DNA of 63,986 nt from Microcaecilia unicolor (lineage: Eukaryota). Under the pieces are notes generated by a model. The model did no database searches, was not told where the DNA came from, and saw nothing but the letters and a program-made list of their open reading frames with translations. The translations under genes were made by a program, and so were the position numbers. Location: NCBI RefSeq assembly GCF_901765095.1, contig NC_044037.1:104487279-104551264 (forward strand). The letters run 5' to 3'. Of the stretch, positions 6,714 to 38,239 are shown one piece after another; position 1 is the stretch's first letter, and each line of letters opens with the position of its first letter.

Positions 6714-7049
6714 CAGTGGCGTACCAAGGGGGAGGGCGGTGGGGGTGGTCCGCCCCGGGTGCACAACGCGCCTGGGGGATGCCACGCCGGTCAGCGTTGT
6801 TGGTTTCCATGCTCCCTCTGCCCCAGAACAGGTTACTTCCTGTTCCGGGGCAGAGGGAGCATGGAAACCAACGACGCTGACTGGCGCGCGGCACCCCCCC
6901 CCCCCAGCGGCGTGCACCCGGGGGGGGTTCTTTCGCCGGTGTCCCTTCGCCGGGGGGGGGGGGGGGGGATCGCGCTGCACCCAGGGGGGGCGGGGGCGGG
7001 GCGCATCGGCGATCCGCCCCGGGTGTCAGCGCCCCTCGGAACGCCACTG
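6714..7049. mobile_element. hAT-like foldback MITE (CAGTGGCG.. family, subfamily with a central long hairpin), inserted in the L1 EN domain.
   Basis: Termini cagtggcgtacc.../...gaacgccactg. Perfect 8-bp TSD TAACAAAC at 6706-6713 and 7050-7057. Central ~45-bp stem hairpin at ~6790-6883. Confidence 0.75.
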
Positions 7050-9030: not shown

Positions 9031-9862
9031 ATTTTCAATTGTAAATATTTTATTCCTTTAAACATCACTTTTCTTGCATTCCACTCTGCCTGTGGTGAGC
9101 CCTCACTTCTGGGGCTTTCAAAAGAGTAGTAGCAGTTAGACACCTCAGTAGCACAGGCCTTGGGAGCCTGAACTCATTGGATCTGGTAGCGTATGGCAGT
9201 CAGCGGCTTTTAAATTGCTGACAGCCATGGATTGAATTAAGCCTGGATATTCAATGCCAAGCCACGTCTGGACTCCGACATTGAATATCCACATAAGTGC
9301 AGTCATCTGGAAGTTAACCGGGCGCCAGCTGGTATCCAGATCAGTGCCTGGTTAGCTCTGCGGAAAAGCTATGACACCCTTTTTGCTATCCTAACTGTAT
9401 GCACTTAACTGGTTAAGTGCCAAGTTCTGCCCCTCGCATTCACCAGACAGTAGACCTTCATCATGGGTCAACAAAAACTTCTCCACATAAAAGCAAGTGG
9501 GTCAAAATGCCACAGTAACAGTACACCTATGATGTGGCTGGTGGGGATCCCCAAGCCCCGCCATCTGAAAACTCTCAACACTTCTCCCTGTTCTGACCTG
9601 GTTTTACAGTCTGCTTCACTGACACAGATTACTCAGTAATTACTGTGTATTCTTTTGGATTCGTATTAGGTAAATGAGACTTTTATTAGAGGTTCTAAAA
9701 TCTAAGATGCACAATGAGATATATATATATATAACTGAAAAGAAACAATGATATCTATCTATAGTTAAACAATACCTATCTATAAACAATCATTACATCA
9801 CTGGTCCCTACATCCAAGCAATGCTAGGAGTTTTTTGACCAGGAAAAGCAATAATAAACTAT

Positions 9863-10725
9863 ACTACTACTACTACAACTACTACAAATCATTTCTCTAG
9901 CGCTACCAGTCGTACGCAGCGCTTCACAATTGAACATGAAGAAAAGACAGTCCCTGCTCAAAAGAGCTTACAATCTAAATCAGGACAGACAGACAGGACA
10001 AATAAGGGATAAGGGAAGGACAGATAGATAGGACACATAGGGAAAAGGGACTATTGAAGAGAGGAAGACAAGATAAAGGTTATGAGCAGGTGACAGGTTA
10101 GGAATTGAAAGCAGCATCAAGCAGGTAGGCCTTTAGCCCGGATTTGAAGGCGGCCAGGGATGGAGCTTGACGTAATGGCTCAGGAAGTTTATTCCAGGCA
10201 TAAGGTGCGACGAGATAAAAGGAACGGAGTCTGGAGTTAGCGATGGAGGAGAAGGGTGCAATTAGGAGAGATTTGCCTAGTGAACGGAGTTCCTGGGAAG
10301 GAGTGTAGGGAAAGATGAGGGTGGAGAGGTAGTGAGGGGCAGCAGAGTGAATGCACTTATAGGTTAATAAGAGGAGCTTGAATTGTATACGCAAACGGAT
10401 AGGGAGCCAGTGAAGTGACTTCAGAAGAGGGCTGATATGGGCATAGCGACTTTGGCAAAATATTAATCGTGCAGCAGAATTTTGAACAGATTGAAGAGGA
10501 GAGAGATGGTTGAGTGGAAGACCTGTAAGAAGCAAGTGGTGAGAAACAGTAGTCCTACTACTACTACTACTACTATTTAGCATTTCTATAGCGCTACAAG
10601 GCGTACGCAGCGCTGCACAAACATAGAAGAAAGACAGTCCCTGCTCAAAGAGCTTACAATCTAATAGTCCAAGCAAGAGATGAGAGTGTGGATGAAGGTT
10701 CTGGTAGAGTGCTCAGAAACAATCA
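9863..10725 (-). mobile_element. Composite insertion of MIR-like (CORE-SINE/L2-3'-tail-related) repeat copies ending in (TAG)n tails. The body carries a conserved ORF-like segment (..SLHWLPIRLRIQFKLL..).
   Basis: The (TAC)n tract plus 'gacagtccctgctcaaa.gagcttacaatcta' (minus strand: tagattgtaagctc..gagcagggactgtc..(tag)n) occurs at 9863-9960 and again at 10555-10680. ORF 10098..10676 (minus) is homologous to ORF 40501..40842 (plus). Confidence 0.5.
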
Positions 10726-10910
10726 TCACTGGTCCTTACATCAGCCAGACTCTTATCAACAGCTAGGGGGGGGGGGGCCCTGTTCACAGCAAAAACCAGG
10801 AGTTTCTTTGACCAGGAAATATGGTTCTTTGCGCAGTATGTACTCACAGATGAGCTCTCAATTTTACTGACAGAAACTCCCTTTTTGATTAGGCTGTTCA
10901 GAGTTAAGGA

Positions 10911-11104
10911 AAAGGGTATGATACATACCTGTAGCAGGTGTTCTCCGAGGACAGCAGGCTGATTGTTCTCACGACTGGGTGACGTCCGCGGCAGCCCCCA
11001 CCAACCGGAAAGAAGCTTCGCGGGACGGTCGGCACGCAGGGCACGCCCACCGCGCATGCGCGGCCGTCTTCCCGCCCGTGCGCGACCGCTCCCGCCAGTT
11101 GAAT
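10911..11104. repeat. DIRS inverted terminal repeat (3' ITR relative to the minus-strand element).
   Basis: ~163 bp reverse-complementary to 16818-16982. The outer 31 bp are unique and complementary to the ICR. Confidence 0.85.
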
Positions 11105-11154
11105 GACTAGCAAAAGATGAAACACACAACTCCAAAGGGGAGGAGGGAAGGTAG

Positions 11155-11253
11155 GTGAGAACAATCAGCCTGCTGTCCTCGGAGAACACCTGCTACAGGT
11201 ATGTATCATACCCTTTCTCCGAGGACAAGCAGGCTGCTTGTTCTCACGACTGG
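11155..11253. repeat. DIRS internal complementary region (ICR).
   Basis: The left half is identical to the reverse complement of the outer end of the 10911 ITR. The right half is complementary to the outer end of the 16982 ITR. Confidence 0.8.
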
Positions 11254-11408
11254 GATATCCCTAGCTCTCAGGCTCACTCAAAACAAGAACCCAGGTCAAT
11301 GGAACCTCGCAACGGCGAGGAAACAACAGAAATTGACCTACGAAGAACAACTAACTGAGAGTGCAGCCTGACCAGAATAAATTCGGGTCCTGGAGGGTGG
11401 AGTTGGAT

Positions 11409-14282
11409 TTACACCCCAAACAGATTCTGCAGCACCGACTGCCCGAACCGACTGTCGCGTCGGGTATCCTGCTGGAGGCAGTAATGTGATGTGAATGTGT
11501 GGACAGATGACCACGTCGCAGCCTTGCAAATCTCTTCAATAGTGGCTGACTTCAAGTGGGCCACTGACGCTGCCATGGCTCTAACACTATGAGCCGTGAC
11601 ATGACCTTCAAGAGTCAGCCCAGCCTGGGCGTAAGTGAAGGAAATGCAATCTGCTAGCCAATTAGAGATGGTGCGTTTCCCGACAGCGACCCCTAGCCTG
11701 TTAGGGTCGAAAGAAATAAACAATTGGGCGGACTGTCTGTTGGGCTGTGTCCGCTCCAAGTAGAAGGCCAATGCTCTCTTGCAGTCCAATGTGTGCAACT
11801 GACGTTCAGCAGGGCGGGTATGCGGCCTGGGGAAGAAAGTTGGCAAGACAATTGACTGGTTAAGATGGAACTCCGACACCACCTTCGGCAGGAACTTTGG
11901 GTGGGTGCGGAGCACTACTCTGTTGTGATGAAATTTGGTATATGGAGCATGAGCTACTAGGGCTTGAAGCTCACTGACCCTACGAGCTGAAGTAACTGCC
12001 ACCAAGAAAATGACCTTCCAGGTCAAGTACTTCAGATGGCAGGTATTCAGTGGCTCAAAAGGAGGTTTCATCAGCTGGGTGAGGACGACGTTGAGATCCC
12101 ATGACACAGTAGGAGGCTTGATAGGGGGCTTTGACAAAAGCAGGCCTCTCATGAATCGAACGACTAAAGGCTCTCCAGAGATGGCTTTACCTTCCACACG
12201 ATAATGGTAAGCACTAATCGCACTAAGGTGATTCCTTACTGAGTTGGTCTTGAGGCCAGACTCTGATAAGTGCAGAAGGTATTCAAGCAGGTTCTGTGCA
12301 GGGCAAGAACGAGGTTCTAGGGCCTTGCTCTCACACCAAACGACAAACCTCCTCCACTTGAAAAAGTAACTCTTTTTAGTGGAATCCTTCCTAGAGGCAA
12401 GCAAGACCCGGGAGACACCCTCAGACAGACCCAACGCAGCGAAGTCTACGCCCTCAACATCCAGGCCGTGAGAGCCAGGGATTGAAGGTTGGGGTGCAGC
12501 AACGCTCCGTCGTTCTGCGAAATGAGAGTCGGAAAACACTCCAATCTCCACGGTTCTTCTGAGGACAACTCCAGAAGAAGAGGGAACCAGATCTGACGGG
12601 GCCAAAAGGGCGCTATCAGAATCATGGTGCCGCGGTCTTGCTTGAGCTTCAGTAAGGTCTTCCCCACCAAAGGTATGGGAGGATAAGCATACAGGAGGCC
12701 GGTCCCCCAATGAAGGAGAAAGGCATCTGACGCTAGCCTGCCGTGTGTCTGAAGTCTGGAACAGAACAGAGGCAGCTTGTGGTTGGTCTGAGAGGCGAAA
12801 AGATCCACCGAGGGGGTGCCCCACTCTCGGAAGATCTTGCGTACCACTCTGGAATGGAGCGACCACTCGTGCGGTTGCATGACTCTGCTCAGTCTGTCGG
12901 CCAGACTGTTGTTTACGCCTGCCAGGTATGTGGCTTGGAGGAGCATGCCGAACCGGCACGCCCAACGCCACATCCCGACGGCTTCCTGACACAGGGGGCG
13001 AGATCCGGTGCCCCCCTGCTTGTTGACGTAATACATTGCAACCTGATTGTCTGTCCGAATTTGGATAATTTGGTAGGACAGCCGATCTCTGAAAGCCTTC
13101 AGTGCGTTCCAGATCGCTCGGAGCTCCAGGAGGTTGATCTGTAGATCCTTTTCCTGGAGGGACCACAGACCCTGGGTGTGAAGCCCATCGACGTGAGCTC
13201 CCCACCCCAGGCGAGATGCATCCGTCGTCAGCACTTTCGAGGGCTGCGGAATTTGGAATGGACGTCCCAGGGTCAAATTGGTCCGGATGGTCCACCAGAG
13301 CAGTGAAGTGCGGCAACTGGTGGAGAGGCGGATGACATCTTCTAGATTCCCGGTGGCTTGGAACCACTGGGAAGCTAGGGTCCATTGAGCAGATCTCATG
13401 TGAAGACGAGCCATGGGAGTCACATGAACTGTGGAGGCCATATGACCCAGAAGTCTCAACATCTGCCGAGCTGTGACCTGCTGAGACGCTCTGGTCTGCG
13501 AAGCCAGGGCCAGGAGATTGGTGGCCCGCGCTTCGGGAAGGTAGGCCTGAGCCGTCTGGGTATTCAGCAGCGCTCCTATGAATTCCAGAGACTGGGATGG
13601 CTGGAGATGGGACTTTGGGTAATTTATCACAAACCCCAGCAGCTCCAGAAGTTGAATAGTGCACTGCATGGACCGGAGGGCTCCTGCCTCCGAGGTGTTC
13701 TTGACCAGCCAATCGTCGAGATATGGGAACACGTGCACTCCCAGCTTGCGTAGGTAGGCCGCTACCACCACGAGGCACTTGGTAAACACTCGTGGGGCAG
13801 AGGCGAGCCCAAAGGGCAGCACACAATACTGAAAGTGCCGTGCGCCCAGGCGGAATCTGAGATACTGTCTGTGAGCTGGCAGTATCGGTATGTGAGTATA
13901 TGCGTCCTTTAAATCCAGGGAACATAGCCAATCGTTTTTCTGAATCATTGGCAGAAGGGTGCCCAAGGAAAGCATCCTGAACTTTTCTTTGACCAGGAAT
14001 TTGTTCAGGCCTCTCAGGTCTAGGATGGGACGCATCCCCCCTGTTTTCTTTTCCACAAGGAAGTACCTGGAATAGAATCCCTGCCCTTCCTGCCCGGGTG
14101 GTACGGGCTCGACCGCATTGGCGCTGAGAAGGGCGGAGAGTTCCTCTGCAAGTACCTGCTTGTGATGGGAGCTGAAAGACTGAGCTCCCGGGGGACAATT
14201 TGGAGGCAGGGAGGCCAAATTCAGGGCGTATCCGCACCGCACTATTTGGAGAACCCACTGGTCGGAGGTTATGAGAGGCCAC
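11409..14282 (-). CDS. DIRS tyrosine recombinase ORF (957-aa open frame). The YR catalytic domain is in the C-terminal ~330 aa (~11409-12400). The N-terminal part overlaps the RT/RH ORF in another frame.
   Basis: C-terminal motifs ...ARRVSELQAL..., HSVRAMAASVA (HxxR) and SHYCL (catalytic Tyr region) are typical of lambda-integrase-like YR. Confidence 0.8.
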   Translation of the reverse strand: MASHNLRPVGSPNSAVRIRPEFGLPASKLSPGSSVFQLPSQAGTCRGTLRPSQRQCGRARTTRAGRAGILFQVLPCGKENRGDASHPRPERPEQIPGQRKVQDAFLGHPSANDSEKRLAMFPGFKGRIYSHTDTASSQTVSQIPPGRTALSVLCAALWARLCPTSVYQVPRGGSGLPTQAGSARVPISRRLAGQEHLGGRSPPVHAVHYSTSGAAGVCDKLPKVPSPAIPVSGIHRSAAEYPDGSGLPSRSAGHQSPGPGFADQSVSAGHSSADVETSGSYGLHSSCDSHGSSSHEICSMDPSFPVVPSHRESRRCHPPLHQLPHFTALVDHPDQFDPGTSIPNSAALESADDGCISPGVGSSRRWASHPGSVVPPGKGSTDQPPGAPSDLERTEGFQRSAVLPNYPNSDRQSGCNVLRQQAGGHRISPPVSGSRRDVALGVPVRHAPPSHIPGRRKQQSGRQTEQSHATARVVAPFQSGTQDLPRVGHPLGGSFRLSDQPQAASVLFQTSDTRQASVRCLSPSLGDRPPVCLSSHTFGGEDLTEAQARPRHHDSDSALLAPSDLVPSSSGVVLRRTVEIGVFSDSHFAERRSVAAPQPSIPGSHGLDVEGVDFAALGLSEGVSRVLLASRKDSTKKSYFFKWRRFVVWCESKALEPRSCPAQNLLEYLLHLSESGLKTNSVRNHLSAISAYHYRVEGKAISGEPLVVRFMRGLLLSKPPIKPPTVSWDLNVVLTQLMKPPFEPLNTCHLKYLTWKVIFLVAVTSARRVSELQALVAHAPYTKFHHNRVVLRTHPKFLPKVVSEFHLNQSIVLPTFFPRPHTRPAERQLHTLDCKRALAFYLERTQPNRQSAQLFISFDPNRLGVAVGKRTISNWLADCISFTYAQAGLTLEGHVTAHSVRAMAASVAHLKSATIEEICKAATWSSVHTFTSHYCLQQDTRRDSRFGQSVLQNLFGV

Positions 14283-14719
14283 CTTTGGTGAAAGAATTTT
14301 AACCTCCCTCCGACCGGCAGATCGTCCGGTACGGACACTTGTAGGGAGGCTATGTTCCCGTGGATCCAGTCAAAAGCCCGTCCCCGGCTTTTGCTGTGGA
14401 GGCGCAGGGGGCTGCTTAGGCGCACGCTGTTGACGAGAACGAGCGCGCTGGGGCTGTCCCTGTGCCTGACGAGGCCTTCGGGCCGGCTGGTTGTACCTAC
14501 GCTTCGCAAAAGAATAGGGTGCAGCCTGCCGGGCCCGGGAAAAACGTCCACCTGTGGAGGTGGATGCTGAAGGCGCCCGGTGGGAGAGCTTGTCGAGAGC
14601 GGTTTCCCGCTGATGCAGTTGGTCCACCATCTGCTCGACCTTCTCACCGAAAATGTTATCCCCCCGGCAAGGGACGTCAGCCAGTCTCTGCTGGGTGCGG
14701 TTGTCCAGGTCAGAGGCAC
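12446..14719 (-). CDS. DIRS reverse transcriptase / RNase H ORF (757 aa).
   Basis: RT YxDD motif (FPYLDDWLV). RNase H motifs TDASRLGWGA, LELRAI, TDN, NSLADRLSR. DIRS/Ngaro-type C-terminal motif PSVDLFASQTNHKLPLF...LIAPFWPRQIW. Confidence 0.85.
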   Translation of the reverse strand: MPLTWTTAPSRDWLTSLAGGITFSVRRSSRWWTNCISGKPLSTSSPTGRLQHPPPQVDVFPGPGRLHPILLRSVGTTSRPEGLVRHRDSPSALVLVNSVRLSSPLRLHSKSRGRAFDWIHGNIASLQVSVPDDLPVGGRLKFFHQRWPLITSDQWVLQIVRCGYALNLASLPPNCPPGAQSFSSHHKQVLAEELSALLSANAVEPVPPGQEGQGFYSRYFLVEKKTGGMRPILDLRGLNKFLVKEKFRMLSLGTLLPMIQKNDWLCSLDLKDAYTHIPILPAHRQYLRFRLGARHFQYCVLPFGLASAPRVFTKCLVVVAAYLRKLGVHVFPYLDDWLVKNTSEAGALRSMQCTIQLLELLGFVINYPKSHLQPSQSLEFIGALLNTQTAQAYLPEARATNLLALASQTRASQQVTARQMLRLLGHMASTVHVTPMARLHMRSAQWTLASQWFQATGNLEDVIRLSTSCRTSLLWWTIRTNLTLGRPFQIPQPSKVLTTDASRLGWGAHVDGLHTQGLWSLQEKDLQINLLELRAIWNALKAFRDRLSYQIIQIRTDNQVAMYYVNKQGGTGSRPLCQEAVGMWRWACRFGMLLQATYLAGVNNSLADRLSRVMQPHEWSLHSRVVRKIFREWGTPSVDLFASQTNHKLPLFCSRLQTHGRLASDAFLLHWGTGLLYAYPPIPLVGKTLLKLKQDRGTMILIAPFWPRQIWFPLLLELSSEEPWRLECFPTLISQNDGALLHPNLQSLALTAWMLRA

Positions 14720-16592
14720 GCAGCCATGAGAGCCTGCGCATCACTATACCTTGGGCCGCAGCACGAGATGCCACGTCACAGGTGTCAAAAATACCCCTGG
14801 ACAGGAACTTTCTGCACGCCTTCAGCTGCCTGACCACCTCCTGATAAGGCCTGGACTGCTCCGGCGGGAGCTTCTCGACCAGGTCCGCCAGTTGTTGCAC
14901 ATAGGTCCGCATGTGAATGCTCATATAGAGCAGGTATGACTGGATGCGGGTCACGAGCATGGAGGATTGGTAGGCCTTCCTCCCAAACGAGTCCAGAGTG
15001 CGAGACTCCCGCCCCGGGGGCGCCGAGGCGGTATCCCTGGAACTCCGTGCCCTCTTGAGAGCAGAATCCACGACCGCTGAGTCATGGGGCAATTGGGGCC
15101 GCATGAGCTCTGGGTCAGAGTGGATCCTGTACTGGGACTCTGCTTTCTTGGGAATGGTGGGGTTAGTTAATGGTCGCACCCAGTTCCGGAGCAGCGTCTC
15201 CTTCAGGACATTGTGCAGCGGTACCGTGGAGGACTCTCTAGGTGGTGATGGATAGTCGAGGACCTCGAGCATCTCGGCCCTCGGCTCTTCCACAGAGACC
15301 ACGGGGAAGGGAATGCTGATAGACATATCCCGCACAAAGGAGGCAAAGGAGAGACTCTCAGGAGGTGAGAGCTTCCTCTCCGGTGAAGGCGTGGGGTCCG
15401 AGGGAAGGCCCGTAGACTCCTCTGAGGAGAAATATCTAGGGTCCTCCTCTTCCCCCCACGAGTCCTCATCCTCGGTATCGGACATTAGCTCATGTAGCTG
15501 AGTCCTGTACCGGGCCCGGCTCGACGTCGAGGCACCGAGCTCTCGGTGTCGTCGAGCGGTGGACTCCCGCGCCGGCGGGGACGGAGCTCCCTCCATCGAC
15601 GTCGACGGGGACTCCACCTGCGTGGCGGTCGAGACCGGCACCGCAAGCGGCGGCGGTGTCGACAGCCCCGGCGCCGGGCTAGAGCTCGCCGGCGCCACAG
15701 TCATCGGCGCCGAGGGCGCAAGCACCCCCGGCGCCGGCACAGCCTGGCGCATCAGCCCTTCCAGGATCCCCGGAAGGATGGCTCTGAGGCACTCGTCCAG
15801 GCCCGCTGCCGGGAAAGGCGGTGGGGCCGGTAAGGGTGTCGGTGCCGGAAGCTGCTGGGGGCCAGGAGACGGCACCGAGGTGCCGGAACCCCGACGCGTC
15901 GGTACCTCCACAACCGACGGAGACCTCTCCTCACGACGATGACGCTTCGGCGTCGTCTCCTCTCCAACATCGGGATGCACCGAAGGCGACCGGTGACGAC
16001 GCTTCTTGTCTTTCTTCCGATGCACGTCACCGGCGCCGGAGGGCATGGAGGAGGAGGAGGTCGATCCCCCTCGGTCTCGAGGTACCGGGTCAGACAGGGT
16101 TCGGTCTCGCGGCCCACGAGCTGAGGGCGTGACCGGGGCCGACTGCCCACGCGGCCTCTCACCCCCACTCTCACCGGAAGACCGGCGGGCCGACGGGACC
16201 TGTTCTCCTGGGGTCGCTGCCATCGGTGCCGATGTCTCGGGCATCGATACCGGTACCGAAGGGCCGGGCGTCGATACCGATGCCTTCGAGGTCGACGTCG
16301 AGGGGCCGGCGCAAGTTCCAAAAAGACGGTCCCGCAGAACTTGCCTCGCAACCTGGGTCCGTTTCCGGAGACCGAGACACAAAGAACACGACTTGAGATT
16401 GTGCTCCGGCCCGAGGCACTGGAGGCACCAAGCGTGGGTGTCGGTCTGCGAGATCGGCCGGCCGCAGCGACCACACTTTTTAAATCCACTCGGGACCTTC
16501 GAGGACATCGACGGAAAAATCGCGTCGGCGAAGTCAAAGTCGTCAATGGTGGCTAAAATCACACCACGAAAAACAAACGACCGAGCGGCCAC
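14370..16592 (-). CDS. DIRS gag-like ORF1 (740 aa; Pro/Ser/Arg-rich; Cys-rich N-terminus).
   Basis: First long ORF downstream of the 5' ITR on the minus strand. It sits in the position of DIRS ORF1. Confidence 0.6.
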   Translation of the reverse strand: MAARSFVFRGVILATIDDFDFADAIFPSMSSKVPSGFKKCGRCGRPISQTDTHAWCLQCLGPEHNLKSCSLCLGLRKRTQVARQVLRDRLFGTCAGPSTSTSKASVSTPGPSVPVSMPETSAPMAATPGEQVPSARRSSGESGGERPRGQSAPVTPSARGPRDRTLSDPVPRDRGGSTSSSSMPSGAGDVHRKKDKKRRHRSPSVHPDVGEETTPKRHRREERSPSVVEVPTRRGSGTSVPSPGPQQLPAPTPLPAPPPFPAAGLDECLRAILPGILEGLMRQAVPAPGVLAPSAPMTVAPASSSPAPGLSTPPPLAVPVSTATQVESPSTSMEGAPSPPARESTARRHRELGASTSSRARYRTQLHELMSDTEDEDSWGEEEDPRYFSSEESTGLPSDPTPSPERKLSPPESLSFASFVRDMSISIPFPVVSVEEPRAEMLEVLDYPSPPRESSTVPLHNVLKETLLRNWVRPLTNPTIPKKAESQYRIHSDPELMRPQLPHDSAVVDSALKRARSSRDTASAPPGRESRTLDSFGRKAYQSSMLVTRIQSYLLYMSIHMRTYVQQLADLVEKLPPEQSRPYQEVVRQLKACRKFLSRGIFDTCDVASRAAAQGIVMRRLSWLRASDLDNRTQQRLADVPCRGDNIFGEKVEQMVDQLHQRETALDKLSHRAPSASTSTGGRFSRARQAAPYSFAKRRYNQPARRPRQAQGQPQRARSRQQRAPKQPPAPPQQKPGTGF

Positions 16593-16817
16593 TAGGCCGC
16601 AATGTGGCGTCCCCGCTGGAAGCGAGGGAAAAAAGGGAGCGCGTGTCCCACACGCGCAGGGTTTCTTTTTTCTTTTTTTTTTTTTAAAAGGAAACCGGGC
16701 GGTAACTAAAACCGATAAACAAAGTTAGAAAAAAACACGATCAGCGTATACGCGATCGAACGATCCGGCGGCTGAACAGAGAGAGCGCAAAACACGACTC
16801 TCTCCAGGCGCGGAAAA

Positions 16818-16982
16818 AAAGGAACTGGCGGGAGCGGTCGCGCACGGGCGGGAAGACGGCCGCGCATGCGCGGTGGGCGTGCCCTGCGTGCCGACCGTCC
16901 CGCGAAGCTTCTTTCCGGTTGGTGGGGGCTGCCGCGGACGTCACCCAGTCGTGAGAACAAGCAGCCTGCTTGTCCTCGGAGA
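16818..16982. repeat. DIRS inverted terminal repeat (5' ITR relative to the minus-strand element).
   Basis: Reverse complement of 10942-11104. Confidence 0.85.
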
Positions 16983-17782
16983 AATTACAGAATACTTGAG
17001 AATTTCTCTATTTAGGCAAAGAAGCCATACTGTGGGAATGTGGTCACATGTTTCCCAGTCCAGATGGCCAATCTGAACTCGAAACAGGCTCCACCTCCCC
17101 CTTCACATACCAAATTAATTAGAACTGTGTCTTATCTTCTATATTCCATACAAACAGAATTATTTCTAATCAAAATACAGACCTCGAGTGCACTTGTCGT
17201 TCATGGCAGAGTTGAAAAACAGACCTCAAGTGCACTTGTCGTTCAAGGCAGAGTTGAAAAACAATCTTTAAAATTCATTTCTAATACACTCCCTCCCACA
17301 TACCTTTAAAAGAGCAGATCTTTGCCAGCAGCAAGCAGTGTGATTGATTCACGTTGTGGGGCTGGCATAAGCAGTGTGTATCAGTCATGCTGCTCACTGC
17401 CAGCAAACATCTGCTCTTTAAAAAGTACATGGTGGGGGGGAAGGGTGTTGAAGGACTGGATTGCCGGCAGAGTGGATGGGTGGGGGGCGGGGGGGTGGTG
17501 AAGGACTGGATTGCCTGCGGGCAGAAGAGGGAGAGACCAGCTCACCTGTGGGGTGGGATTCTTCTGCCTACCCAACTTGGGCACAGGCCCACCCAAAATT
17601 GTTTGTCTGGCTATGCCCTTAGTCAGTGCTAGCAGTCAATGCAGGCCTTCCTCAACCTGCCATCTCCAACTGTCTTGCTGTCAAATTTGTGAGTTCTTTG
17701 TACCAAATGGAGCACTGCTGAGTGCGAGGAAACGCACCCTGACTCTGCTTGGCAGCCGAGCAACCCCGAGGTTCACCTGCGG

Positions 17783-18405
17783 CAGGGGCGTTTCTGCGTG
17801 GGGCCACAGGGGCCTGGGCCCCCGCAGATTTCGCCCTGGCCCCCCTCCTGCCGCCAACCCTCCCCCACTAATGTTGTTTACCTTTGCTGGCGGGGGACCC
17901 CAACCCCCGCCAGCCGCCGAGGTCTTCAAAGTTCTTGTTCGTCGTCCTCCGTGGCCATGCTGTACCCTGTTGATTTGGAGTCTGTCTGACGTCGCACCAC
18001 GTTGTACGTGCGTACAACGTGGTGCGACGTCAGACAGACTCCGAATCAGCAGCGTACAACATGGCCACGGAGGAGGACGACGAACAAGAACTTTGAAGAC
18101 CTCGGCGGCTGGCGGGGGTTGTGGTCCCCGCCAGCTGAAGAATTACTTTTAAAAGCAGGCGGAAACGGACCTCAGCTGGCGGGGGTTGGGGTCCCCGCCA
18201 GCAAAGGTAAACAACGTCAGCGGGGGAGGGTTGGCGGCGGGAGAGGAGGTGGAGAGAGTCGTTGGTGGCAGGGGGGGCTCTGGTAATGGCGGGGGGGGGA
18301 GTCGTTGGTGGCAGGGGGGGCTCTGGCAATGGCGGGGGGGGACTAAATGTGCCCCCTCCCTCTGGCCCTGGCCCCCCCTACTGCCAGAGTCCAGATACGC
18401 CCCTG
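17783..18405. mobile_element. hAT-like foldback MITE (CAGGGGCG../..CGCCCCTG family) containing a long internal palindrome (17940-18080).
   Basis: Termini caggggcgtttctgcgtggggccacagg.../...cagatacgcccctg. Perfect 8-bp TSD ACCTGCGG at 17775-17782 and 18406-18413. The whole element is near-palindromic. Confidence 0.8.
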
Positions 18406-19257
18406 ACCTGCGGTGACCGCCATTCCCCAGGGGTTGAGCCCCCAGGTGTGGGCGTGTAATGGAAGATTTAAAGGATTGCTTTTCAACCCTGCTTTGATCA
18501 ATAATGAACTCTGAAATCTTCTGTCTTTGACCGAAAGTAACTTTTCTTGTAAATACAAAAACAAGTTGGAATGCAGAAGATATGACATAGCTCTAATTAA
18601 TTTGTTATGTGAAGGGAACGATGGAGCTTGTTTTCGGGTTCAGACTGGCCATCTGGACTAGGAAACATGTGACCACGTTCCCACAGTATGGCTTGTTTAC
18701 CTAGACAGAGAAGCATTCTGTAATTTTCCTTAGCTCTGAACATGAGTTCTGAGCCTAATAAAAAGGGGAGTTTCTTTCAGTGAAATTGGGAGCTCATCCG
18801 TGAGTAACGTACGTACTGCACAGAGGATCTGCTCCTGGTCTAAAATGCTCCTGGCTTTCGCTGTAACGGGCCCCCCCAGCTGATGATAAGAGCCTGGATG
18901 ATGTAAGGACCAGTGATGTTGTATGTATGTATTATTGCTTCTTTTCCTGGTCTAAGAGCTCTTAGCATTGCTTAGATGTAGAGACCAATGATGTAATGAT
19001 TGTTTAGCTAATCATTGTGTTTATATAGCTAATCATTGTATATACCTTAATCATTGTAGAATTTAGCACCTCTAATAAAGGTTTCATTTATCTAATACGA
19101 ATCCAAAAGAATCCACAGTAATTATTGAGTAGTCTGTGTCAGTGAGACAGGCTGTAAATCCAAAGCAGTACAGGGTGGCAGACAGGACTTATGTAGAGAG
19201 AAAATGAGAGGGGCGCTGAGGAAACCAGCTGGAGGAGAGTACAAGGGAGTGGCCCAG

Positions 19258-19450
19258 GTACAGGCAACAGTCCAACAGGCAGACAGCTGGCAAAGGAGAG
19301 ATCCAGGTACAAGCAAGGTCTTACAGGCAGGCAGCAGACAAGAGAGTAGTCCAGGTCCAAGAAAGGTCTTACAGGCAGGCAGCAGACGAGAGAGTAATCC
19401 AGGTATAAGCAAGGTCAAGAACCAGGAACACAGGCAGAACACAGTGAAGA
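19258..19450. repeat. Tandem repeat, ~48-bp unit x4 (caggtacaagcaaggtcttacaggcaggcagcagacaagagagtagtc).
   Basis: Four consecutive similar units are visible directly. Confidence 0.6.
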
Positions 19451-19599
19451 TAAAAGCTTACCAACTAGAAGCCGAAGCAATAATGCAGAGGAAAGCTCTC
19501 CTGAAGTAGTGCAGGCGTCTGATGTCAACATGAGGCAGCTGGAGAAGGAGAGCTTGACAGGTCAGGAAGGCAGTGAGGGGAGGGGCGCAGGAGCCCGCC

Positions 19600-20812
19600 C
19601 ATGGAGCAGGAAGGCGGGTTGGCGGTCACAAGCCAACTGGCAGAGCCAACTTGGAAGTTCCTCAGGAAGCGCGCTGATCCGACCGCAGGCAGGGCAACAT
19701 GGGGGACCCGGGTGCGCGCACAGAGCTGGAAAGTACTACGGAAGGGCACAGCACCGTCCCGAAGTGCCAGACCCGTAGAGACAGTGAGCGTCCCCACGCC
19801 ACCGGAGAGCCCCTCCGACGAGGAGGTAAGGGGCGTGACACTTGCCCAGTTCCTCAGTGCCTTTCTCATCCATGCCTAACACTAATTACCTTCCCCATTA
19901 TCATCCAGGCACTCCAGAACAACATGGCTCAGTTGTTCACCATAGTCTGCTTTCCCTCGGTTATAGGCCTCATCAACTGCACACACATCACACTCAGACC
20001 CCCATCCACGGACACCTACAGCAGTGGCATAGCAAGGTGGGGTGCCAGGGGAACGGCCGCTCCCCCAAACAGAGTTCTGCCGGCGCTTATTTTTTTTGTC
20101 CTGTTGCACTGAAAATGTGCGCCAGCGGAAGTCCGCTCTCGCTCCCCCATGCCGTCACTGGCTCCGCTTCTGACCTACAGGAATAGAAAATCATATCACT
20201 CCATGAACATGCAGATTGTGTGTGATGCCCAGGCCCCAGGGAGATTGTGGATATATGTGCCCACTACCCAGGCTTCACCCACAATGCCTACATCCTCCAG
20301 CATTCAGGAATCTACTGCACATTTGAACAAGGGGAGATCACTGGCACCTGGCTCCTAGGTAAGCAGTACAGGGATTCCTAAACCCCATACCTCCTCCCCC
20401 CCTCTTAACCTTCAAACACACTCCTTCTCTCTAGATGCCCTCAGAACTGACAACCATTACCCCACCTCCACAAGGTCACCATACCAGCCAATACACACCC
20501 ATGTCTGTGATTCTGCTTCCCCCACCCCACAGGTGACAGAGGCTACCCCCAGCATACCTGGATCAATAATCCCATAATCCACCTCCATAATGAGGCAGGA
20601 GGAGAGTATAACGAGGCATAAGAGCACCCGCACCACCATAGAATGGACCTTTGGCCATATCAAGAATTGCTTCAGATGACTGGACCATTCCGGAGGGGAG
20701 CTCTTCTAGAGCCCTAAAAAGGTTGCCAAACGTTTGATGTCCTGCTGCTTGCTGCACAACCTGGCTCTCCAAAGAAGACAGGCCCTGCCAGAGGAGGGAC
20801 AGCAACCACAGC
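19600..20812 (+). pseudogene. Harbinger/PIF-type DDE transposase (HARBI1-like) pseudogene. It has frameshifts, two in-frame stops and two intron-like interruptions. Its 3' end continues after the hAT insertion at 23388-23480.
   Basis: Transposase motifs in order: ITFP..IQALQNNMAQLFTIVCFPSVIGLINCTHITLRPP; YRNRKSYHSMNMQIVCD; YPGFTHNAYILQHSGIY..GEITGTWLLG; then after GT..AG (20359-20532) DRGYPSIPGS; then YNEAHKSTRTTIEWTFGHIKNCFR*LDHSGGELF*SPKKVAKRLMSCCLLHNLAL. Confidence 0.65.
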
Positions 20813-21267
20813 CAGGGCCGGTCTTAGCAAGTGCGGGACCCTATGCAGACCAATTTTATGAGGCCCCACCCTAGTCCTGCCCCCACCCTAGCTCCGCCCC
20901 CACCCTAGCTCCAGGGCTGGCCACCCCTCCCTCTGAGCTCCAAGGCCCCCAGCTCCAGGGCTTGTCGATCCTGCACAGTCAATGCCAACTGAAAGCCATG
21001 TCTTTTTCACAAACACAGATACACCCTAATCCACTATAGAATAAGTAGTAATATTTAAACTTTCTATTTAGACAAAAATTAAACTGAACCCCCAAGATGC
21101 CAGACTCTGCATACAATGCAACACCACAGAAACAGAAAATGTCCCCTAGTACTGTGCAAAATATAAAGACAGCAGATGTAAATTTGAAAAAAAACTAACA
21201 AATACCAATCACCACTTTACAAATTAACAAATAGAAATAAAACAAATATAGAAAATAAAATAATACA

Positions 21268-21425
21268 ATTTTATTGGACTAATACATTTAGCTTTCAGAG
21301 GCCAAAACATCCTTCCTCAGGTCACTACAGTATAGTACTGTTACAGTATCCTATCCTGACCTGAGGAAGGGGGTTTGTTCTCCGAAAGTTAGCCAAAATG
21401 TATTAAAATTAGTCCAATAAAATGA
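21268..21425. repeat. Small palindromic (foldback) element inside hAT element A.
   Basis: Inverted arms cattttattggactaatacatttagctttcagaggccaaaacatccttcctcaggtca / tgacctgaggaaggg..attagtccaataaaatg. Confidence 0.4.
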
Positions 21426-21491
21426 TTACCTTGTTTACATGTTCTATTATAAACATTTATTAACACAGCTACAATACTACTTTATCCTAAA

Positions 21492-21841
21492 CAGTGGCGT
21501 AGCCACAGGTGGGCTTGGGTGGGCCAGGGCCCACCCATTTATGGCTCGGGCCCACCCAACAGTAGCACATGTTTAGTGGTAACTAGTGGGAATCCCAAGC
21601 TCTGCCAGCTGAAGATTTCCCCCTGATGGTAACGAACATGCTACTCTCCACAACACCGGCACCTGTGCATGCTCAGTTTTCAGTGCATGCTTGCTGCCAA
21701 GGTGAAAAGAAGCGTTTTCCCACTGGCTGAGATAATTTTTTTTGGAGGGGGGGAGAACACTTGGTGCCCACCCAATTCTTGCCCAGGCCCACCCAAAATC
21801 TGTTGTCTGGCTACGCCCCTGATCCTAAAGCAAAAAAATAA
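21492..21841. mobile_element. hAT-like foldback MITE (CAGTGGCGTAGCC family) nested in element A.
   Basis: Termini cagtggcgtagccacagg.../...tggctacgcccctg. Perfect 8-bp TSD ATCCTAAA (21484-21491 and 21842-21849). Confidence 0.8.
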
Positions 21842-21849
21842 AAATATAT

Positions 21850-22980
21850 ATTTTATTTACAGTTTGTTGTCTCTGGTTTCTGCTTTCCTCATCTTCTTTT
21901 CACTGTCTTCCTTCCATCCAGCATCTGTCTTCGGTCTCTCTTTGCCATCCAATTTCTGCCCTCTCTCCCTGCCCCTTACATCCACCATCTGCCCCTGTCT
22001 GCCCTCTCTCTCTCCCCCTTCCATTCACTGTCTACCCTTTCTATCCCTTCCATCCACTGTCTGTCCTTTCTCTCTGCCCCTTCAATCCACCATTTGCCCT
22101 CCCTCTCCCATCCATCCAGGGTCTGCCCTCCCTCTCGCTCCCCCTTCCATCCAGGATCTGCCCCTCCCTCTCTGCCCCTTTTTTTCAGCCCCCAGTTCCA
22201 GCCCCACTATCCCACCAGTCCCCCGTTTCAGCCCCAGCCCTTTTCTCCCACCAGTCTCGAGCTTCAGCCCCCAGCCACTTCTCCCTGTCCCCTTTTCAGC
22301 ACCCAGTTTCAACCCCAGCCCTTTTCTCTCATCAGTCCCAAGCTTCAGCCCCAGCCACTTCTGTCTCCTTTTCAGCCCCCAGTCCCCACACTTTCAGCCC
22401 CTGCCCCTTTTCAGCCTCCAGTCCCAGTACTAGCCCCCTTATCCCACCTACCCTCCTTTTCAGCCCCCAGTTCCAGCCCCCTTCATCCACATGCCTTGTA
22501 TTAGGGCCCCCCTTTTCAGCCCCAGAACCATTCTCCCACCTGACCCATGCATGCCCCATTTTCCCACCAGCCCCAGGCATGGCCCCCATTCTCCCATATG
22601 GCCCCTTCTCAGACCCCAGTTCCAGCCCCCTTCTCCCATCTGGGAGCCCCCTCCCCTCCTCCCATTCAAGAACCTCCTCGCCTCCCCACCCCAGTCCCTT
22701 CTGCCATCCGAGAACCCTCTCCCCACCCCACCCCCCTTCTCCCATCCCCCTTCCCACCCTAGTCCTCTTCTCCCATCCGAGAACCACCTCCCCACCCCAG
22801 TCCCCTTCTCCCATCCAAGAACCCCAGTCCCCTCCCCACCCCACCCATCCCCTGCTCCCATCCAAGAACCCCCTCCCCTCCCCCAGTCCCCTTCAACCAT
22901 CCGAGAACCCCCATCCCACACCCTTCTCCCATCTGAGTCCCCCCCCCCGACCTGACCCACCTACCAGCTCCGTTCTCCTG
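21850..22980. repeat. CT-rich low-complexity / degenerate tandem block (ccc-ttc-cat-cca motifs). The ORFs here are compositional artefacts.
   Basis: Strong pyrimidine bias on the plus strand. Similar composition at 61760-62800, which also follows a MITE end. Confidence 0.6.
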
Positions 22981-24102
22981 CCACCACCCTCACTGCCTTT
23001 TAAAAAAAAATTTGCGAAGTGCCGGAGTGGCAGGCAGCGCCTCGAGTCTGCCCTGCTAGTAAAAATCTCCTCGACGTTGTCAGGCCTTCCCACATTGAGT
23101 CCCGCCCGCCCTCGCGGTAATAGGAAGTTACCTCAGAGGAGGGCTGGACTCAATGTGGGAAGGCCCGACAACGTCGAGGAGATTTTTACTAGCAGGGCAG
23201 ATGCGAGGCACTGCCTGCCACTCCAGCGCTTGACAAATTTTTTAAAAAAGGCAGGACAGGGTGGGAGCAGCGGAGGGAGGGGGGACTGGAGCTCGGGTGG
23301 TCGGGGCGGGGCGACTTCAGGCGCGCCGCGCAGGACCCCCTTGAGCGCGAGGCCCTATGCGGTCGCCTCGCCCTAAGACCGGCCCTGACCACAGCAGCAG
23401 CCACTCGACCCAGAGGATAAGGAGCATACCAGTTGGGAGTCAGCGACAGACAAAGACTCATTCTGACCAATTTTCAGTAAAGGTAAGTGCACTATTTATT
23501 TGTGCACAGCACCTCTGTAACATCCCCCACCCCCTCTCCCCCAGCACAAACCCCCCTCCTGCTGCACATACAACCCCACCCCTGCAAATACAGACTCACC
23601 CCCTCTCCCCAGCACACACCACCACAGCATGGCAATTAGGTGACTCACAGTTCTCCCCCTCCCCAACCCCTCTGGGAACCACTTCTCCCACCCTGTCCCC
23701 GACCTGCTGGCAATGGCCCAGGCCTTGCAGGAGCAGAAATTGTGTCAGAGTTCTCCTCTCTGGGGCTTCCACTGTCCTCACAGTCATCAGTCCGTCCTGC
23801 CGCCTCTGTTGTAACCTGGAAATCTAGTCACCTGATTGGCCAGGTGGTTGATGTGCTGCTGGGCCCAGCAAACAGGAAGGGAGCTTGCACCAGCTCTGCA
23901 CCTATATGAGAAGTCAATACAAATGTGGTATAGATTAGAGAATGACATGGGGACAGGGAACCGCAGCAGGGTATTCAACAGGGGTTGGGTCTAGACCATT
24001 AATGAAGTTTTCTGTGTCCATGTTGTTCTGAGGTAGGGTTTTGCGTAGGTTTATGATTTTTTCATTGAAATATTTAGCAAGGCTGTCTGCAGATGCGATG
24101 TC

Positions 24103-25910
24103 CAGGGCCGGTCATAGCAAGTGCGGGGCCCTATGCAGACCAATTTGGTGGGGCCCCATCCTAGCCCCGCCCACCCTAGCCCTGCCCCCACCCTAGCTCC
24201 GCCCTCACCCTAGCTCCACCCCACTGATAAGATTCCATTTTTAGAAAAATTTTTTATTTATAAAGACTAATGAAGCTGAATCCCCATTCTGCTGAGCCCA
24301 AGCAGCTTCTCTCTCAGTGTATAGCCCAAGCTTCATTATTATTATTAATATATTCTTATAACCAGTGCGTTTTTTATAGCAAAAAGGTGCCAGTACTCAA
24401 ATGCTAGCCACCCTTCAGGGGTGGGGTGATCATTGAGGGACCCACCCCATAATATAATCCAGGCCCCCTGAATTGGTGTGTAGAGCCTGAGCTCTTTCAT
24501 TAAAACCCAGGGACCATGGGTCAATTTTAGCAGACAATAGAAAAGGTGCCAGCACTCAGTACCCCCAAGTACCCCCTCAAAAAAAAAGCCCTACTTATAA
24601 CCCACAAAATACCACAAAGTTCACTGTGGCTAATATACCAAAACTGAAAAAACCCCATCAGGAATTACAATGTCTATACACAAATTTTCAAAACAAACAA
24701 ACCTCAGCTACCATGAATTAACAAAATTTCTAAAAAAAATAAATTGTGACAAAGACAAATGAAGCTAAACTTGAACAAAAAAACTGAATGAAATAATAAG
24801 CACAATGCTATCATGAAACCTCCCCTCCCCAGAAATTATTCAGTTCAAGTCCACTACAATTAGTAGTTCCAATTCTCATAACAAAGGAGAATAACGGAAA
24901 AATATTAAGAAAAGATCCAGTACTTTCAAATTCCCCTATTATTCTGTAACCCATCAAACCAGAGAGGCAAGTAGCCACATCAGTTACTAAAATAGTTTGA
25001 ACTGATTGTACCTACTTTATATCAGATTTTGCTACTTCATGATTTCCATTCTCAGATTTTAGCTTAGTAATCTTTTCTTCCTGTGATTGCAGTCTAGCTT
25101 CCAAATGATTAATTCGAGGTGTCATATCATTAATTACTGGAAGCAGTGTTTTAGCTAAATCTGCTATTGCCATCCAAATTTTTATCAGGAGAAATATCTG
25201 CAGATCTATGTGAAAATAACCCAGATATGTTACAAACAGCCTCTTCCAAGCCAGAAGATCTTACTTGCTCATCTTCTCCAGCAACTAATGTTGTTGGGCC
25301 AAATTCCTCTCAGGAAGGCAGACATTTCCAACCCTTGCACCGTCCGCAAGCGTCGTTAGATGAGAGAGACACTTCTCCTGATCTCCTGCCTGCATGGAAT
25401 CCGATTTCGATTTCCGATTTGGCATAAGTGCACAACTGTTGGCATCAGCAACGATGGCTCACCTCACGTCCTCACCACCTCCGACCAGGCTCCAGCTTTT
25501 CCCGCTCAGTGACTCCTGCCCTCGCGTCTGGAAACAGGAAATACATCAGAAGGCGGGACATTGAGCGGGAAGCTGGAGCCTGGAGGTGAGCCGTCGCGCT
25601 GCAACTGTCTGTCGTCGCCGTCGGAGGCGGGGCCATCACTGCCTGGGCTGGCTCGCTGGCATCGCTCAGTTAGTCGCCGGGGACTCGGGAGCTGACGGCG
25701 GGCTCAGCGGGCCCAAGCCGGGGGGGGGGGGGGGGGGCGCCGCGCCGGTGGTGGCGGGAGCGGAGCGGCTGAGCCGCGAGAATGGGGATCATCTCAGGTG
25801 ACTAAGGCGAGCAGCGGCGGAGGTCAGAGCGGAGGCGCGCCGCGCGGAGCCCCCTTATGCGCGGGGCCCTATGCGGCCGCCTTGGTCGCCTCTGCCTAAG
25901 ACCGGCCCTG
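24103..25910. mobile_element. hAT-like non-autonomous element 'B' (1.8 kb), same TIR family as element A.
   Basis: TIRs cagggccggtcatagcaagtgcggggccctatgc.../...gccctatgcggccgccttggtcgcctctgcctaagaccggccctg. 8-bp TSD GCGATGTC/GTGATGTC (one mismatch) at 24095-24102 and 25911-25918. G17 homopolymer at ~25722-25740. Confidence 0.65.
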
Positions 25911-28500: not shown

Positions 28501-28883
28501 CAGTGGAGTAGCTACGGGGGGGCCACAGGGGCCTGGGCCCCCCAAATTGGCTCTGGAGCCCCTGGTTGGTTAGGGACCCCTGCCAGCTAAAGCGTTTGTC
28601 CAGCACTAGTTTCCGCTGCATTGCCTGCCCTGCTCCTCCCCTCATGCCTGCCCTACGCTTCCCCTCACATCACATGCATGCTCGTGTTAGTGAAATGTGA
28701 GGGGAAGAGCAGGACAGGCAATGCGGTGGAGACCAGTACTGGACAAATGCTTCAGCTGGCGGGGGTCCTGAACCCCCGCTAGCCAAGGTATGTGAAGAGG
28801 CAGTGGCAATGGAGGGGCGGGGCAGCAGGGAGGCGGGCTAAAATGCCCCCCCCCCCCCACGTTGAGGTCTGGCTATGCCACTG
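28501..28883. mobile_element. hAT-like foldback MITE (variant terminus CAGTGGAGTAGCTACG).
   Basis: Termini cagtggagtagctacggggggccacagg.../...ggctatgccactg. 8-bp TSD GGTCACAT/AGTCACAT at 28493-28500 and 28884-28891. Internal palindrome cccctcacatcacatgcatg..tgtgaggggaag. Confidence 0.6.
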
Positions 28884-35600: not shown

Positions 35601-36289
35601 TTTTTTCCTTCTGTGGATTACAACAAAGATCATTTTAGTAACCAGCACATAAGTACAAGCACCCTTTTTAACCCCTCCCTCTTCCTTGCCAAGCAGAGGC
35701 GTAGCCACGGGCGGGCCTGGATGAGCCCAGGCCCAGCCACTTTCCCTCCAGACCCACCCATCCAACATCCTTCGCTTGCTGTCACTGCTTTTTCTCCCGT
35801 GGCTCCGGGTATGGCCGTCCAGGAGGCAGTGTTCAGCGTTGCCTGCCTACCTGCCCTGAAATAATTCTTCTCCCCAGGCTCCGCTGCCTCGGTCCCTACA
35901 TTTTCTTTTTCGCCCGTCGCGCAGCGCTGACATTCACACAGGCAGCTCCGCTCTCCCCTATCGCGTCCATCTGGCCCTACGTAAACAGGAAGTGCATCAG
36001 AGAGGGCTGGATGGATGTGGCAAAGGGGAGCGGAGCTACCTGTGTGAATGGCAGCGCTGTGCAACGGGCAAAAAAGAGAATACAGGGACAGAGGCAGCAG
36101 AGCCTGGGGAGAAGAAGAATTTCAGGGCAGGTAGGCAGGCAATGATGAATGCTGCCTTCCGGACGGACATACCCGGAGCCACTGGAGAAAAGGCAGCGAC
36201 AGCGAGCGAAGGATGTTGGATGGGCGGGCCTGGAGGGCAGAACTAAAGTAAGTGCTGGACCCTTGGGGGGGGAGGACGGGGGGGGGGGC

Positions 36290-36960
36290 TGGAGGGAAGG
36301 GATAGATTTGTCGGACTTGTGGGAGGAAGGGGATTGGAGGGAAGGGAGAGACTTACTGAATGTGGGAGGAAGAGAAAGGAGGGGATCTGAATGGAAGGGA
36401 GAGATTTGCTGGAGGTGGGAGGAAAAGGAGGAGGGGATGGATGGAAGGGAGAGAGCTGTTGGACACATTGGAGCCAACTCTGTGGGTGCTGTGGGTGCTT
36501 GAGAGCCCCAATATTGAGAAAATTCCTTGTATGTGTCCAGGGAGGGGTTATTTTCATTGGGCTTAGCACCCCCAATAATTTTGAAAAGTTGGCTCCTATG
36601 GCTGGACATGGGAGGGAGAGGAGGAAGGGGCTGGAGAGCTGCTGGTCAAGGGAGGAAGAAGGGACTGGAGGGAAGGGAGAGAGCTACTGGACATGGGAGA
36701 AAGAGGAGGAAGGGACTGGAGGGAAGGGAGAGAGCTGCTGGACATGGGAGGAAGAGGAGGAGGGGATCTGGGTGGAAGGGAGAGAGCTGCTGGACATGGG
36801 AGGAAGAGAAGGAGGGGACTGGGTGGAAGGGAGAGAGCTGCTGGATGTGGGAGGAGGTGGCTGGAGAGAATGAGCTGCTGGATGTGGGAGTAAGAGGAGG
36901 AGGGGATCTGGATGGAAGGGAGAGAGCTGCTGGACGTGGGAGGAAGAGGGGGAACAGAAC
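36290..36960. repeat. Minisatellite, ~51-bp unit x ~10 (gggactggagggaagggagagagctgctggacatgggaggaagaggagga), within a 1.3-kb purine-rich block (36150-37460).
   Basis: Directly visible tandem units. The overlapping ORFs (36391..36873, 36527..37075, minus-strand ORFs) are repeat artefacts. Confidence 0.7.
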
Positions 36961-37999: not shown

Positions 38000-38239
38000 T
38001 GGCGGACCGTGGCTTAGTGGAGGATGAAGAGTGCTCCCTCTTATATTTCCCCTAGCTCTCAATGTGGCCTGCAGCCACTGAGGCCAGCACTGCTACTCCC
38101 ATTGAAGTTATTGGGAGTGGGGTAGGTGTGCAGTAGGAGTAGGGGCATGGGCAGGGCATATCAGGTGCAGGTGTTTCTCTAGTGCCCGTCCATCCAACCT
38201 GTTGGCGCACCCAAAAATTGCCTTCTGTCTATGCCACTG
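38000..38239. repeat. 3' fragment of a CAGTGGCGTAGCC-family hAT MITE (inverted relative to the copy at 60625).
   Basis: 38190-38239 ..acctgttggcgcacccaaaaattgccttctgtctatgccactg is the reverse complement of 60625-60670. The interior matches 60700-60830. Confidence 0.5.

Follow-up and report, generated by a model that had tools for sequence, protein, structure and literature searches.

Identity of a decayed Harbinger transposase gene in Microcaecilia unicolor, its predicted intron and the insertions that interrupt it

Does an intron in a decayed Harbinger transposase gene betray descent from the domesticated gene HARBI1, or can a transposon have carried it? The question is raised by a relic in Microcaecilia unicolor (assembly GCF_901765095.1, contig NC_044037.1, forward strand), within a stretch of 63,986 nucleotides (positions 104,487,279 to 104,551,264; hereafter the window, in whose coordinates all positions are given). 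An earlier note on this DNA had described a Harbinger (PIF) transposase-like gene with two GT..AG interruptions, nonsense codons, frameshifts and a hAT insertion. Taking Harbinger transposons to be normally intronless, it had proposed either a decayed paralogue of HARBI1 or an intron-bearing Harbinger lineage. We found that the locus is very probably an old, dead, 5'-truncated copy of a PIF/Harbinger transposase gene whose family is multi-copy in caecilian genomes. It is an ordinary decayed Harbinger transposon copy and not a HARBI1 paralogue. Of the earlier reading, the transposase relic, the hAT insertion, the nonsense codons and the frameshifts stand, but the pair of introns and the intronless premise do not.

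The relic lies on the plus strand and extends from 17623 to a stop codon at 23478-23480. Homology to Harbinger/HARBI1-type DDE_Tnp_4 proteins is collinear by tblastn from 19838 to 20812 and then from 23396 to 23477, and the repaired translation matches the Pfam profile PF13359 (DDE_Tnp_4) with E=1.1e-26 and 93.8 bits over profile positions 1-158 of 158. Both results confirm the collinear motifs that had been noticed from the letters, including their resumption past the hAT insertion. In the three-frame translation the Harbinger/HARBI1 motifs follow one another in the order FPSVIGLINCTH; Y-RNRKSYHSMNMQIVCDA; YPGFTHNAYIL; WLLG|DRGYP; TRTTIEWTFGHIKNCFR*LD; CCLLHNLA (the bar marks a splice junction and the asterisk a stop). 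Past a 2,575-bp insertion the series ends with DRQRLILTNFQ*, its TAA stop at 23478-23480 falling at the homologous C-terminus. This C-terminal motif matches ARHRLIQTHFV of Geotrypetes and TRQELILTHFS of HARBI1. Collinearity is restored once four interruptions are taken out: 17679-19840, 20022-20172, 20359-20532 and 20813-23387.

The relic had been taken to begin at 19600, but 19600-19840 is the 3' part of a 2.16-kb insertion, and the gene runs further 5', to a small piece at 17623-17678 (SVLAVNAGLPQPAISNCL), where tblastn finds 16 of 18 residues identical to Geotrypetes P0002 (E=1.4e-5). With 17679-19845 removed, this piece and the next fragment form a single high-scoring segment pair, which reads …AISNCLAQFLSAFLIHA and is 72-76% identical to Geotrypetes proteins. 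The intervening block of 2,162 bp (17679-19840) starts with TGTCA, ends with TGACA, is flanked by a 5-bp duplication, CTTGC (17674-17678 and 19841-19845), and splits the codons …SNCL|AQFL…; its excision yields the unbroken peptide AISNCLAQFLSAFL, matching AISNCLTQFLNAFL. On its 5' side the relic is abutted and truncated by the 3' end (…GGCTATGCCCTTA) of a plus-strand, hAT-type miniature inverted-repeat transposable element (MITE) at 17565-17621, which is 81% identical to another MITE end at 21765-21818. The upstream copy of its target-site duplication (TSD), GTCAGTGC, is absent from the plus strand of the window. Transposase residues 1-99 have no credible match in the window by tblastn, either at word size 2 and E up to 200 or with 241 diverse homologues. 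A match at 4700-4858 (E=0.24) was tried as an N-terminal piece and rejected: it overlaps residues already placed elsewhere.

What remains of exon 1 is split into three plus-strand fragments, at 17623-17678 (SVLAVNAGLPQPAISNCL(A), corresponding to residues ~100-117 of Geotrypetes P0002), 19841-20021 (…LAQFLSAFLIHA / ITFPIIIQALQNNMAQLFTIVCFPSVIGLINCTHITLRPPSTDTY) and 20181-20358 (RNRKSYHSMNMQIVCDAQ / REIVDICAHYPGFTHNAYILQHSGIYCTFEQGEITGTWLL(G)). Exon 2, on the same strand, is in two parts, 20533-20812 ((G)DRGYPQHTWINNPIIHLHNEAGGEYN / RHKSTRTTIEWTFGHIKNCFR*LDHSGGELF*SPKKVAKRLMSCCLLHNLALQRRQALPEEGQQPQ) and 23396-23480, the latter comprising an acidic and Gln-rich tail with one frameshift, the C-terminal motif GVSDRQRLILTNFQ and the TAA stop.

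This gene is dead, with its N-terminal ~100 residues gone, a catalytic Asp replaced by Asn, and its frame broken by at least four frameshifts (four were counted, where at least two had been claimed) and at least three nonsense codons. One nucleotide is deleted within 19877-19884, where TAA triplets stand at 19877 and 19883; the segment 20233-20240 has 8 nt where homologues have 3 nt, shifting the frame in the third fragment of exon 1; a +1 frameshift (one extra nucleotide) lies at ~20613, and another frameshift falls in the C-terminal tail, within 23396-23440. The in-frame TGA and TAG of the earlier note are present, the TGA (20677-20679) at the Cys position of RFRCL and the TAG (20707-20709) at the Tyr position of LLY/LQY. 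The D-D-E triad has lost its first Asp, now Asn (AAC, 19975-19977), and has kept its second (GAC, 20535-20537) and its Glu (GAA, 20641-20643). We found no indication of any present function.

The interruption that bears most directly on the question is the 174-bp GT..AG segment at 20359-20532, which is present as the earlier note described it. It interrupts, in phase 1, the Gly codon that immediately precedes the second catalytic Asp, and its removal restores WLLG|DRGYP. The junctions read CTCCTAG|GTAAGCAG...(pyrimidine tract)CCCCACAG|GTGACAGA, that is, a donor TAG|GTAAGC and an acceptor in which a polypyrimidine tract precedes CACAG|GT. No TSD flanks the segment, and no further copy of it lies in the window. 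All five homologues whose exons we mapped on genomic loci have an intron in this same codon and phase. It measures ~125 bp in Rhinatrema P0013, ~1.1 kb in Rhinatrema P0014 and 7.8 kb in the bona fide Rhinatrema HARBI1, P0143 (CTGCTGG|gtaagt…cacag|CTGATTCC); the junctions are CTTCTGG|GTGAGT…CCCCAG|GGGACCGT in cod P0034 and TTGCTTG|GTATGC…TTTTAG|GGGACGCA in the tick (Ixodes) P0087. The gene span of a Pleurodeles copy exceeds its coding sequence by ~155 bp, which fits one short intron. From the GT-AG context and the shared position and phase, we predict that 20359-20532 is a true and very old spliceosomal intron, and that the WLLG|D intron would be an ancestral feature common to HARBI1 and the Harbinger-like genes of cod and tick.

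The premise that Harbinger transposons are normally intronless is contradicted by these five relatives and by published accounts: introns commonly number 1-3 in PIF/Harbinger transposase genes (PMC4565680, introduction) and 1-2 in those of Medicago (PMC2213677, Table 1). The comparison with a bona fide HARBI1 locus that the earlier note had proposed was run on the Rhinatrema gene; it does find the same intron, but it leaves the two hypotheses unseparated, because HARBI1, the transposons and the tick homologue all carry the WLLG|D intron and its position is non-discriminating.

The discrimination comes from phylogeny and from the copy number and two-gene make-up of the relatives. The closest proteins to the relic are paralogues of Geotrypetes seraphini named 'putative nuclease HARBI1', followed by proteins of Rhinatrema bivittatum. 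In a neighbour-joining tree (Kimura distances, 258 columns readable in the relic, 100 bootstraps), the relic and six Geotrypetes paralogues group at 100/100, and Geotrypetes P0012 and Rhinatrema P0013 (locus L001) join this group at 72/100. The HARBI1 orthologues (n=10, from fish to mammals and including those of both caecilians) make up a clade of their own with the same 100/100 support. Against the Geotrypetes copies the relic reaches 48-57% identity, against P0013 44% and against HARBI1 29-33%, and it has the transposon-type motif LLGDRGYP where HARBI1 has LLGDSSFF. In clade, identity and motif it is thus not a member of HARBI1, although it shares the exon-intron structure. Of the two origins that had been proposed, a decayed HARBI1 paralogue is not supported by these results, and an intron-bearing Harbinger lineage is.

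The Geotrypetes paralogues number at least 10 and are 52-86% identical to P0002 (66-86% within the cluster of the relic), and some are truncated or frameshifted. Relatives in Pleurodeles, Bufo and Gadus fall in clusters of 24-57 member sequences. These relatives in other genomes indicate, indirectly, that the family is multi-copy. The P0013 locus of Rhinatrema, L001, has a convergent open reading frame (ORF) with a Myb_DNA-bind_5 domain (E=5e-10) 1.8 kb downstream. In cod, at locus L004, terminal inverted repeats (TIRs) of 24 nt, 3.2 kb apart, enclose the transposase gene with its intron and, convergent to it, a decayed Myb-like ORF. A 14-nt TIR candidate at L001 (9405-9418 / 14034-14047) was rejected, being indistinguishable from chance and having no matching TSD. 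Between the relic and the Rhinatrema Harbinger loci there is no DNA-level similarity, and identity to Rhinatrema DNA is only 64-82% for the interspersed repeats of the window.

Two further observations concern the database entries that carry the HARBI1 name. The C-terminus of Geotrypetes P0002 reads as a frameshifted P0001/P0004 tail, and P0004 has a scrambled stretch where the HD…WLLGD region is expected; both look like decaying transposon copies. Rhinatrema P0014 (L002, gene at 10001-12165) and the bird 'putative nuclease HARBI1' paralogues P0021 and P0025 form one subclade in which the first Asp is replaced by Gly and the catalytic Glu by Gln or Arg; WLLGDRSYP is kept, and P0014 keeps the intron. 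This subclade may represent a second domesticated Harbinger-derived gene of tetrapods, distinct from HARBI1.

The relic could instead be an unprocessed pseudogene of a host gene, whether a HARBI1 paralogue or some other co-opted transposase. Such an origin would account for the retained intron at the position of bona fide HARBI1 and for the TIR, TSD and Myb-like partner not found at the locus, and the Rhinatrema P0014 and bird paralogues, which are without catalytic residues, look like just such domesticated genes. We nevertheless consider it improbable. The low identity to HARBI1, the fully supported position outside the HARBI1 clade and the equally supported grouping with a many-copy Geotrypetes cluster all speak against it; the intron is non-diagnostic, since the two-gene L001 and the TIR-bearing L004 transposons have it too; and the relic falls outside the candidate domesticated P0014/bird subclade. 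Several points nonetheless weigh against a Harbinger transposon copy, or against parts of its history as we describe it. The transposon status of the nearest cluster, that of Geotrypetes, is deduced from copy number and decay. The Harbinger TIR and TWA TSD are not identified for the relic copy, its 5' end being missing and its 3' terminus having no family consensus. No Myb-like ORF is found within 2.2 kb downstream of the relic or nearby, by tblastn with the L001 Myb protein and its C-terminal exon or by a six-frame Pfam scan of 23480-25700 (where a PKcGMP_CC match, E=0.008, is noise), but this lack is uninformative because the copy is truncated and heavily disrupted. The long terminal repeat (LTR) identity of the 2.16-kb block is drawn only from its TG…CA ends and 5-bp duplication, and a second, inverted copy of a repeat that the block contains (repeat U, below) lies close by, just upstream.

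The remaining GT..AG segment had been presented as an intron of 116 bp at 20037-20180, coordinates that in fact span 144 bp. If both interruptions were introns, this one would be a lineage-specific second intron, perhaps an inserted element that became intronised; the GT at 20037-20038 and the AG at 20179-20180 do exist, and splicing them keeps the reading frame. The GT, however, sits 15 nt inside a 151-bp insert (20022-20172) that is bounded by a perfect 8-bp TSD, ACCTACAG, at 20014-20021 and 20173-20180. The 5' end of the insert, CAGTGGCATAGCAA, matches the family terminus CAGTGGCGTAGCCA at 12/14 positions, and the reverse complement of its 3' end, CAGAAGCGGAGCCA, at 11/14, where the chance of at least 11/14 at a random position is ~1.5e-4 per end. 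This terminus recurs in at least seven further elements of the window, each with its own 8-bp TSD, perfect or 7/8. Excision of the insert with one TSD copy (20022-20180) gives exactly DTYRNRKSYHS (…PPSTDTYRNRKSYHS…), which fits the Y-x-N-[RS]-K-x-x-HS block without any indel. Splicing 20037-20180 gives DTYSSGIARNRK, which breaks the invariant Y-x-N-[RS]-K spacing with five added residues seen in none of 38 aligned homologues. None of the five homologues with mapped exons has an intron at this place. Because of the TSD, the MITE-like ends, the clean excision and the lack of an intron in homologues, we interpret 20022-20172 as a predicted hAT-type MITE insertion and not an intron, with a fortuitous GT..AG pairing, and regard a second intron as scarcely credible.

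How does a Harbinger transposon copy of this kind compare with known systems? Vertebrate Harbinger transposons, of which Harbinger3_DR of zebrafish is an example, are among the closest. Together with cod L004 and Rhinatrema L001, they share with the relic a gene of two coding exons, split by a phase-1 intron ahead of the second Asp, and a DDE_Tnp_4 transposase with the motifs xDGTH/DCTH, Y-x-NRK-x-HS, LLGDxGYP, R-x-x-IE-x-x-FG-x-LK-x-RFRCL and LHN; in the tree the relic groups with them. The relic differs from them in lacking the N-terminal ~100 residues, a Myb-like partner, recognisable TIRs and a TWA TSD, and in being inactivated by mutations and four nested insertions. The Geotrypetes paralogues (P0001-P0004, P0007-P0011) resemble it in sequence over the 258 readable residues and have the same C-terminal motif and stop. 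They are annotated as intact or near-intact ORFs, however, whereas the relic is a long decayed branch, sister to the whole cluster, and could represent either an older copy or a sister subfamily. HARBI1 of jawed vertebrates belongs to the same fold family and has a single coding intron at the same codon and phase, but it is single-copy and conserved, unlike this pseudogene with its transposon-type motifs. Plant PIF/Pong elements are of the same superfamily and introns are normal in their transposase genes, though the lineages are distant.

In the intact ancestor of the relic, one short phase-1 intron, lying immediately ahead of the second catalytic Asp codon, would have divided the coding sequence into two exons, and the spliced product would have been a DDE_Tnp_4 transposase of ~350-370 aa. 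By analogy with characterised Harbingers, this transposase and a Myb/SANT-like partner from the same element would have carried out cut-and-paste transposition with reinsertion at TWA sites; the relic copy, too, would formerly have had its Myb-like partner. Once inactive, the copy would have decayed neutrally, through the Asp-to-Asn change, the frameshifts and the nonsense codons, and would then have been hit by younger elements, namely the 5' MITE, the 2.16-kb LTR-like block, the 151-bp MITE and the 2.6-kb hAT element. The block and the hAT element would each in turn have taken up a MITE. This relative order is suggested by the intact TSDs and by the nesting of MITEs within the insertions.

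The largest insertion in the coding sequence, hAT element A, interrupts the C-terminal coding part as had been proposed. This non-autonomous element of 2,575 bp (20813-23387) has a 15-bp TIR without mismatch, CAGGGCCGGTCTTAG, and is flanked by a likewise perfect 8-bp TSD, ACCACAGC (20805-20812 and 23388-23395). Its interior holds C-rich tandem repeats and a 293-bp palindrome (22978-23270) and no transposase, and a MITE of 330 bp (21492-21821; TSD ATCCTAAA) is nested in it. Element A and the 151-bp MITE have the 8-bp TSD and short, CAG-starting TIRs of hAT elements and are assigned to this group as putative members by TSD length and TIR type only. At 24103-25910 lies another member of the element A family, which has the same 15-bp terminus and the TSD G[C/T]GATGTC; only ~100 bp and ~70 bp of terminal sequence are common to the two, as expected of deletion derivatives. 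Non-autonomous hAT-type elements with CAGKGGCRTAKC termini saturate the window, with 8-bp TSDs that are perfect or 7/8; they lie at 6714-7049, 17783-18405, 21492-21821, 28501-28883, 35694-38239, 49588-50113, 56610-56956 and 60625-63149.

One of these, the MITE at 17783-18405 (termini CAGGGGCGTTTC…GATACGCCCCTG; TSD ACCTGCGG at 17775-17782 and 18406-18413), is nested in the 2.16-kb block and has a related copy at 49588-50114. A 48-bp tandem array (19241-19416) lies in the block as well, as does part of an unclassified repeat, U (~18450-19175). By its ends and TSD length the block is a candidate solo LTR, a label that stays tentative because its termini, TGTCAAATTTG and TGTCACGCCCC, are not found in the inverted copy of repeat U, where similarity stops at ~17293 and ~9586. 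That inverted copy (9586-10913 and 16984-17293) is 75-83% identical to 18450-19175. The two opposed copies thus flank the small 5' Harbinger fragment, one within the 2.16-kb block and the other split by a DIRS-like element. We rejected the idea that they are the long TIRs of a single element that captured the Harbinger fragment, because 17623-17678 joins the sequence from 19846 onward seamlessly across a clean 5-bp duplication.

The DIRS-like retrotransposon inside the inverted U copy (10914-16983, minus strand) is apparently intact and young, and has three long ORFs: a gag-like ORF (14370-16592), one with RVT_1 (E=2e-18) and RNase H (12446-14719), and one within 11409-14282 with a tyrosine-recombinase-type C-terminus (Phage_int_SAM_4, E=2e-7). 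Its inverted termini (10941-11100 and 16823-16983) are 98.8% identical.

A tblastn search of the window with the 241 homologues found no second Harbinger relic. Residues 179-214 of mammalian HARBI1 have a marginal match at 1641-1748 (plus strand; E=0.007, 39% identity over 36 aa), which may be fortuitous or a far older Harbinger fossil. The Myb-like protein of the Rhinatrema Harbinger weakly matches a Myb/SANT-like sequence, REPNFGQEESLLLVRLCLRHRHRLF (E=0.22), at 59574-59648 (plus strand), which lies 36 kb away from the relic and is probably unrelated to this copy. Rfam and tRNA scans of 16500-24600 showed no structured RNA and no tRNA-like feature.

In itself the locus is of little import, a textbook case of how nested transposons decay in a large amphibian genome rich in repeats. 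It does carry some cautions. Interruptions of a pseudogene bounded by GT…AG are not always introns, and here a 151-bp MITE mimics one; and the NCBI-style database name 'putative nuclease HARBI1' mixes the true domesticated gene with Harbinger transposase copies. The presence or position of the intron can neither tell domesticated HARBI1 from its transposon relatives nor argue for an origin from HARBI1. The WLLG|D phase-1 intron is likely to be an ancient hallmark of the animal HARBI1-like Harbinger clade, for which it may serve as a small phylogenetic marker. If so, HARBI1 would have been domesticated from a transposase gene that already bore the intron, and the intron would have been kept through hundreds of millions of years of transposon turnover, with the Microcaecilia relic as one more carrier.

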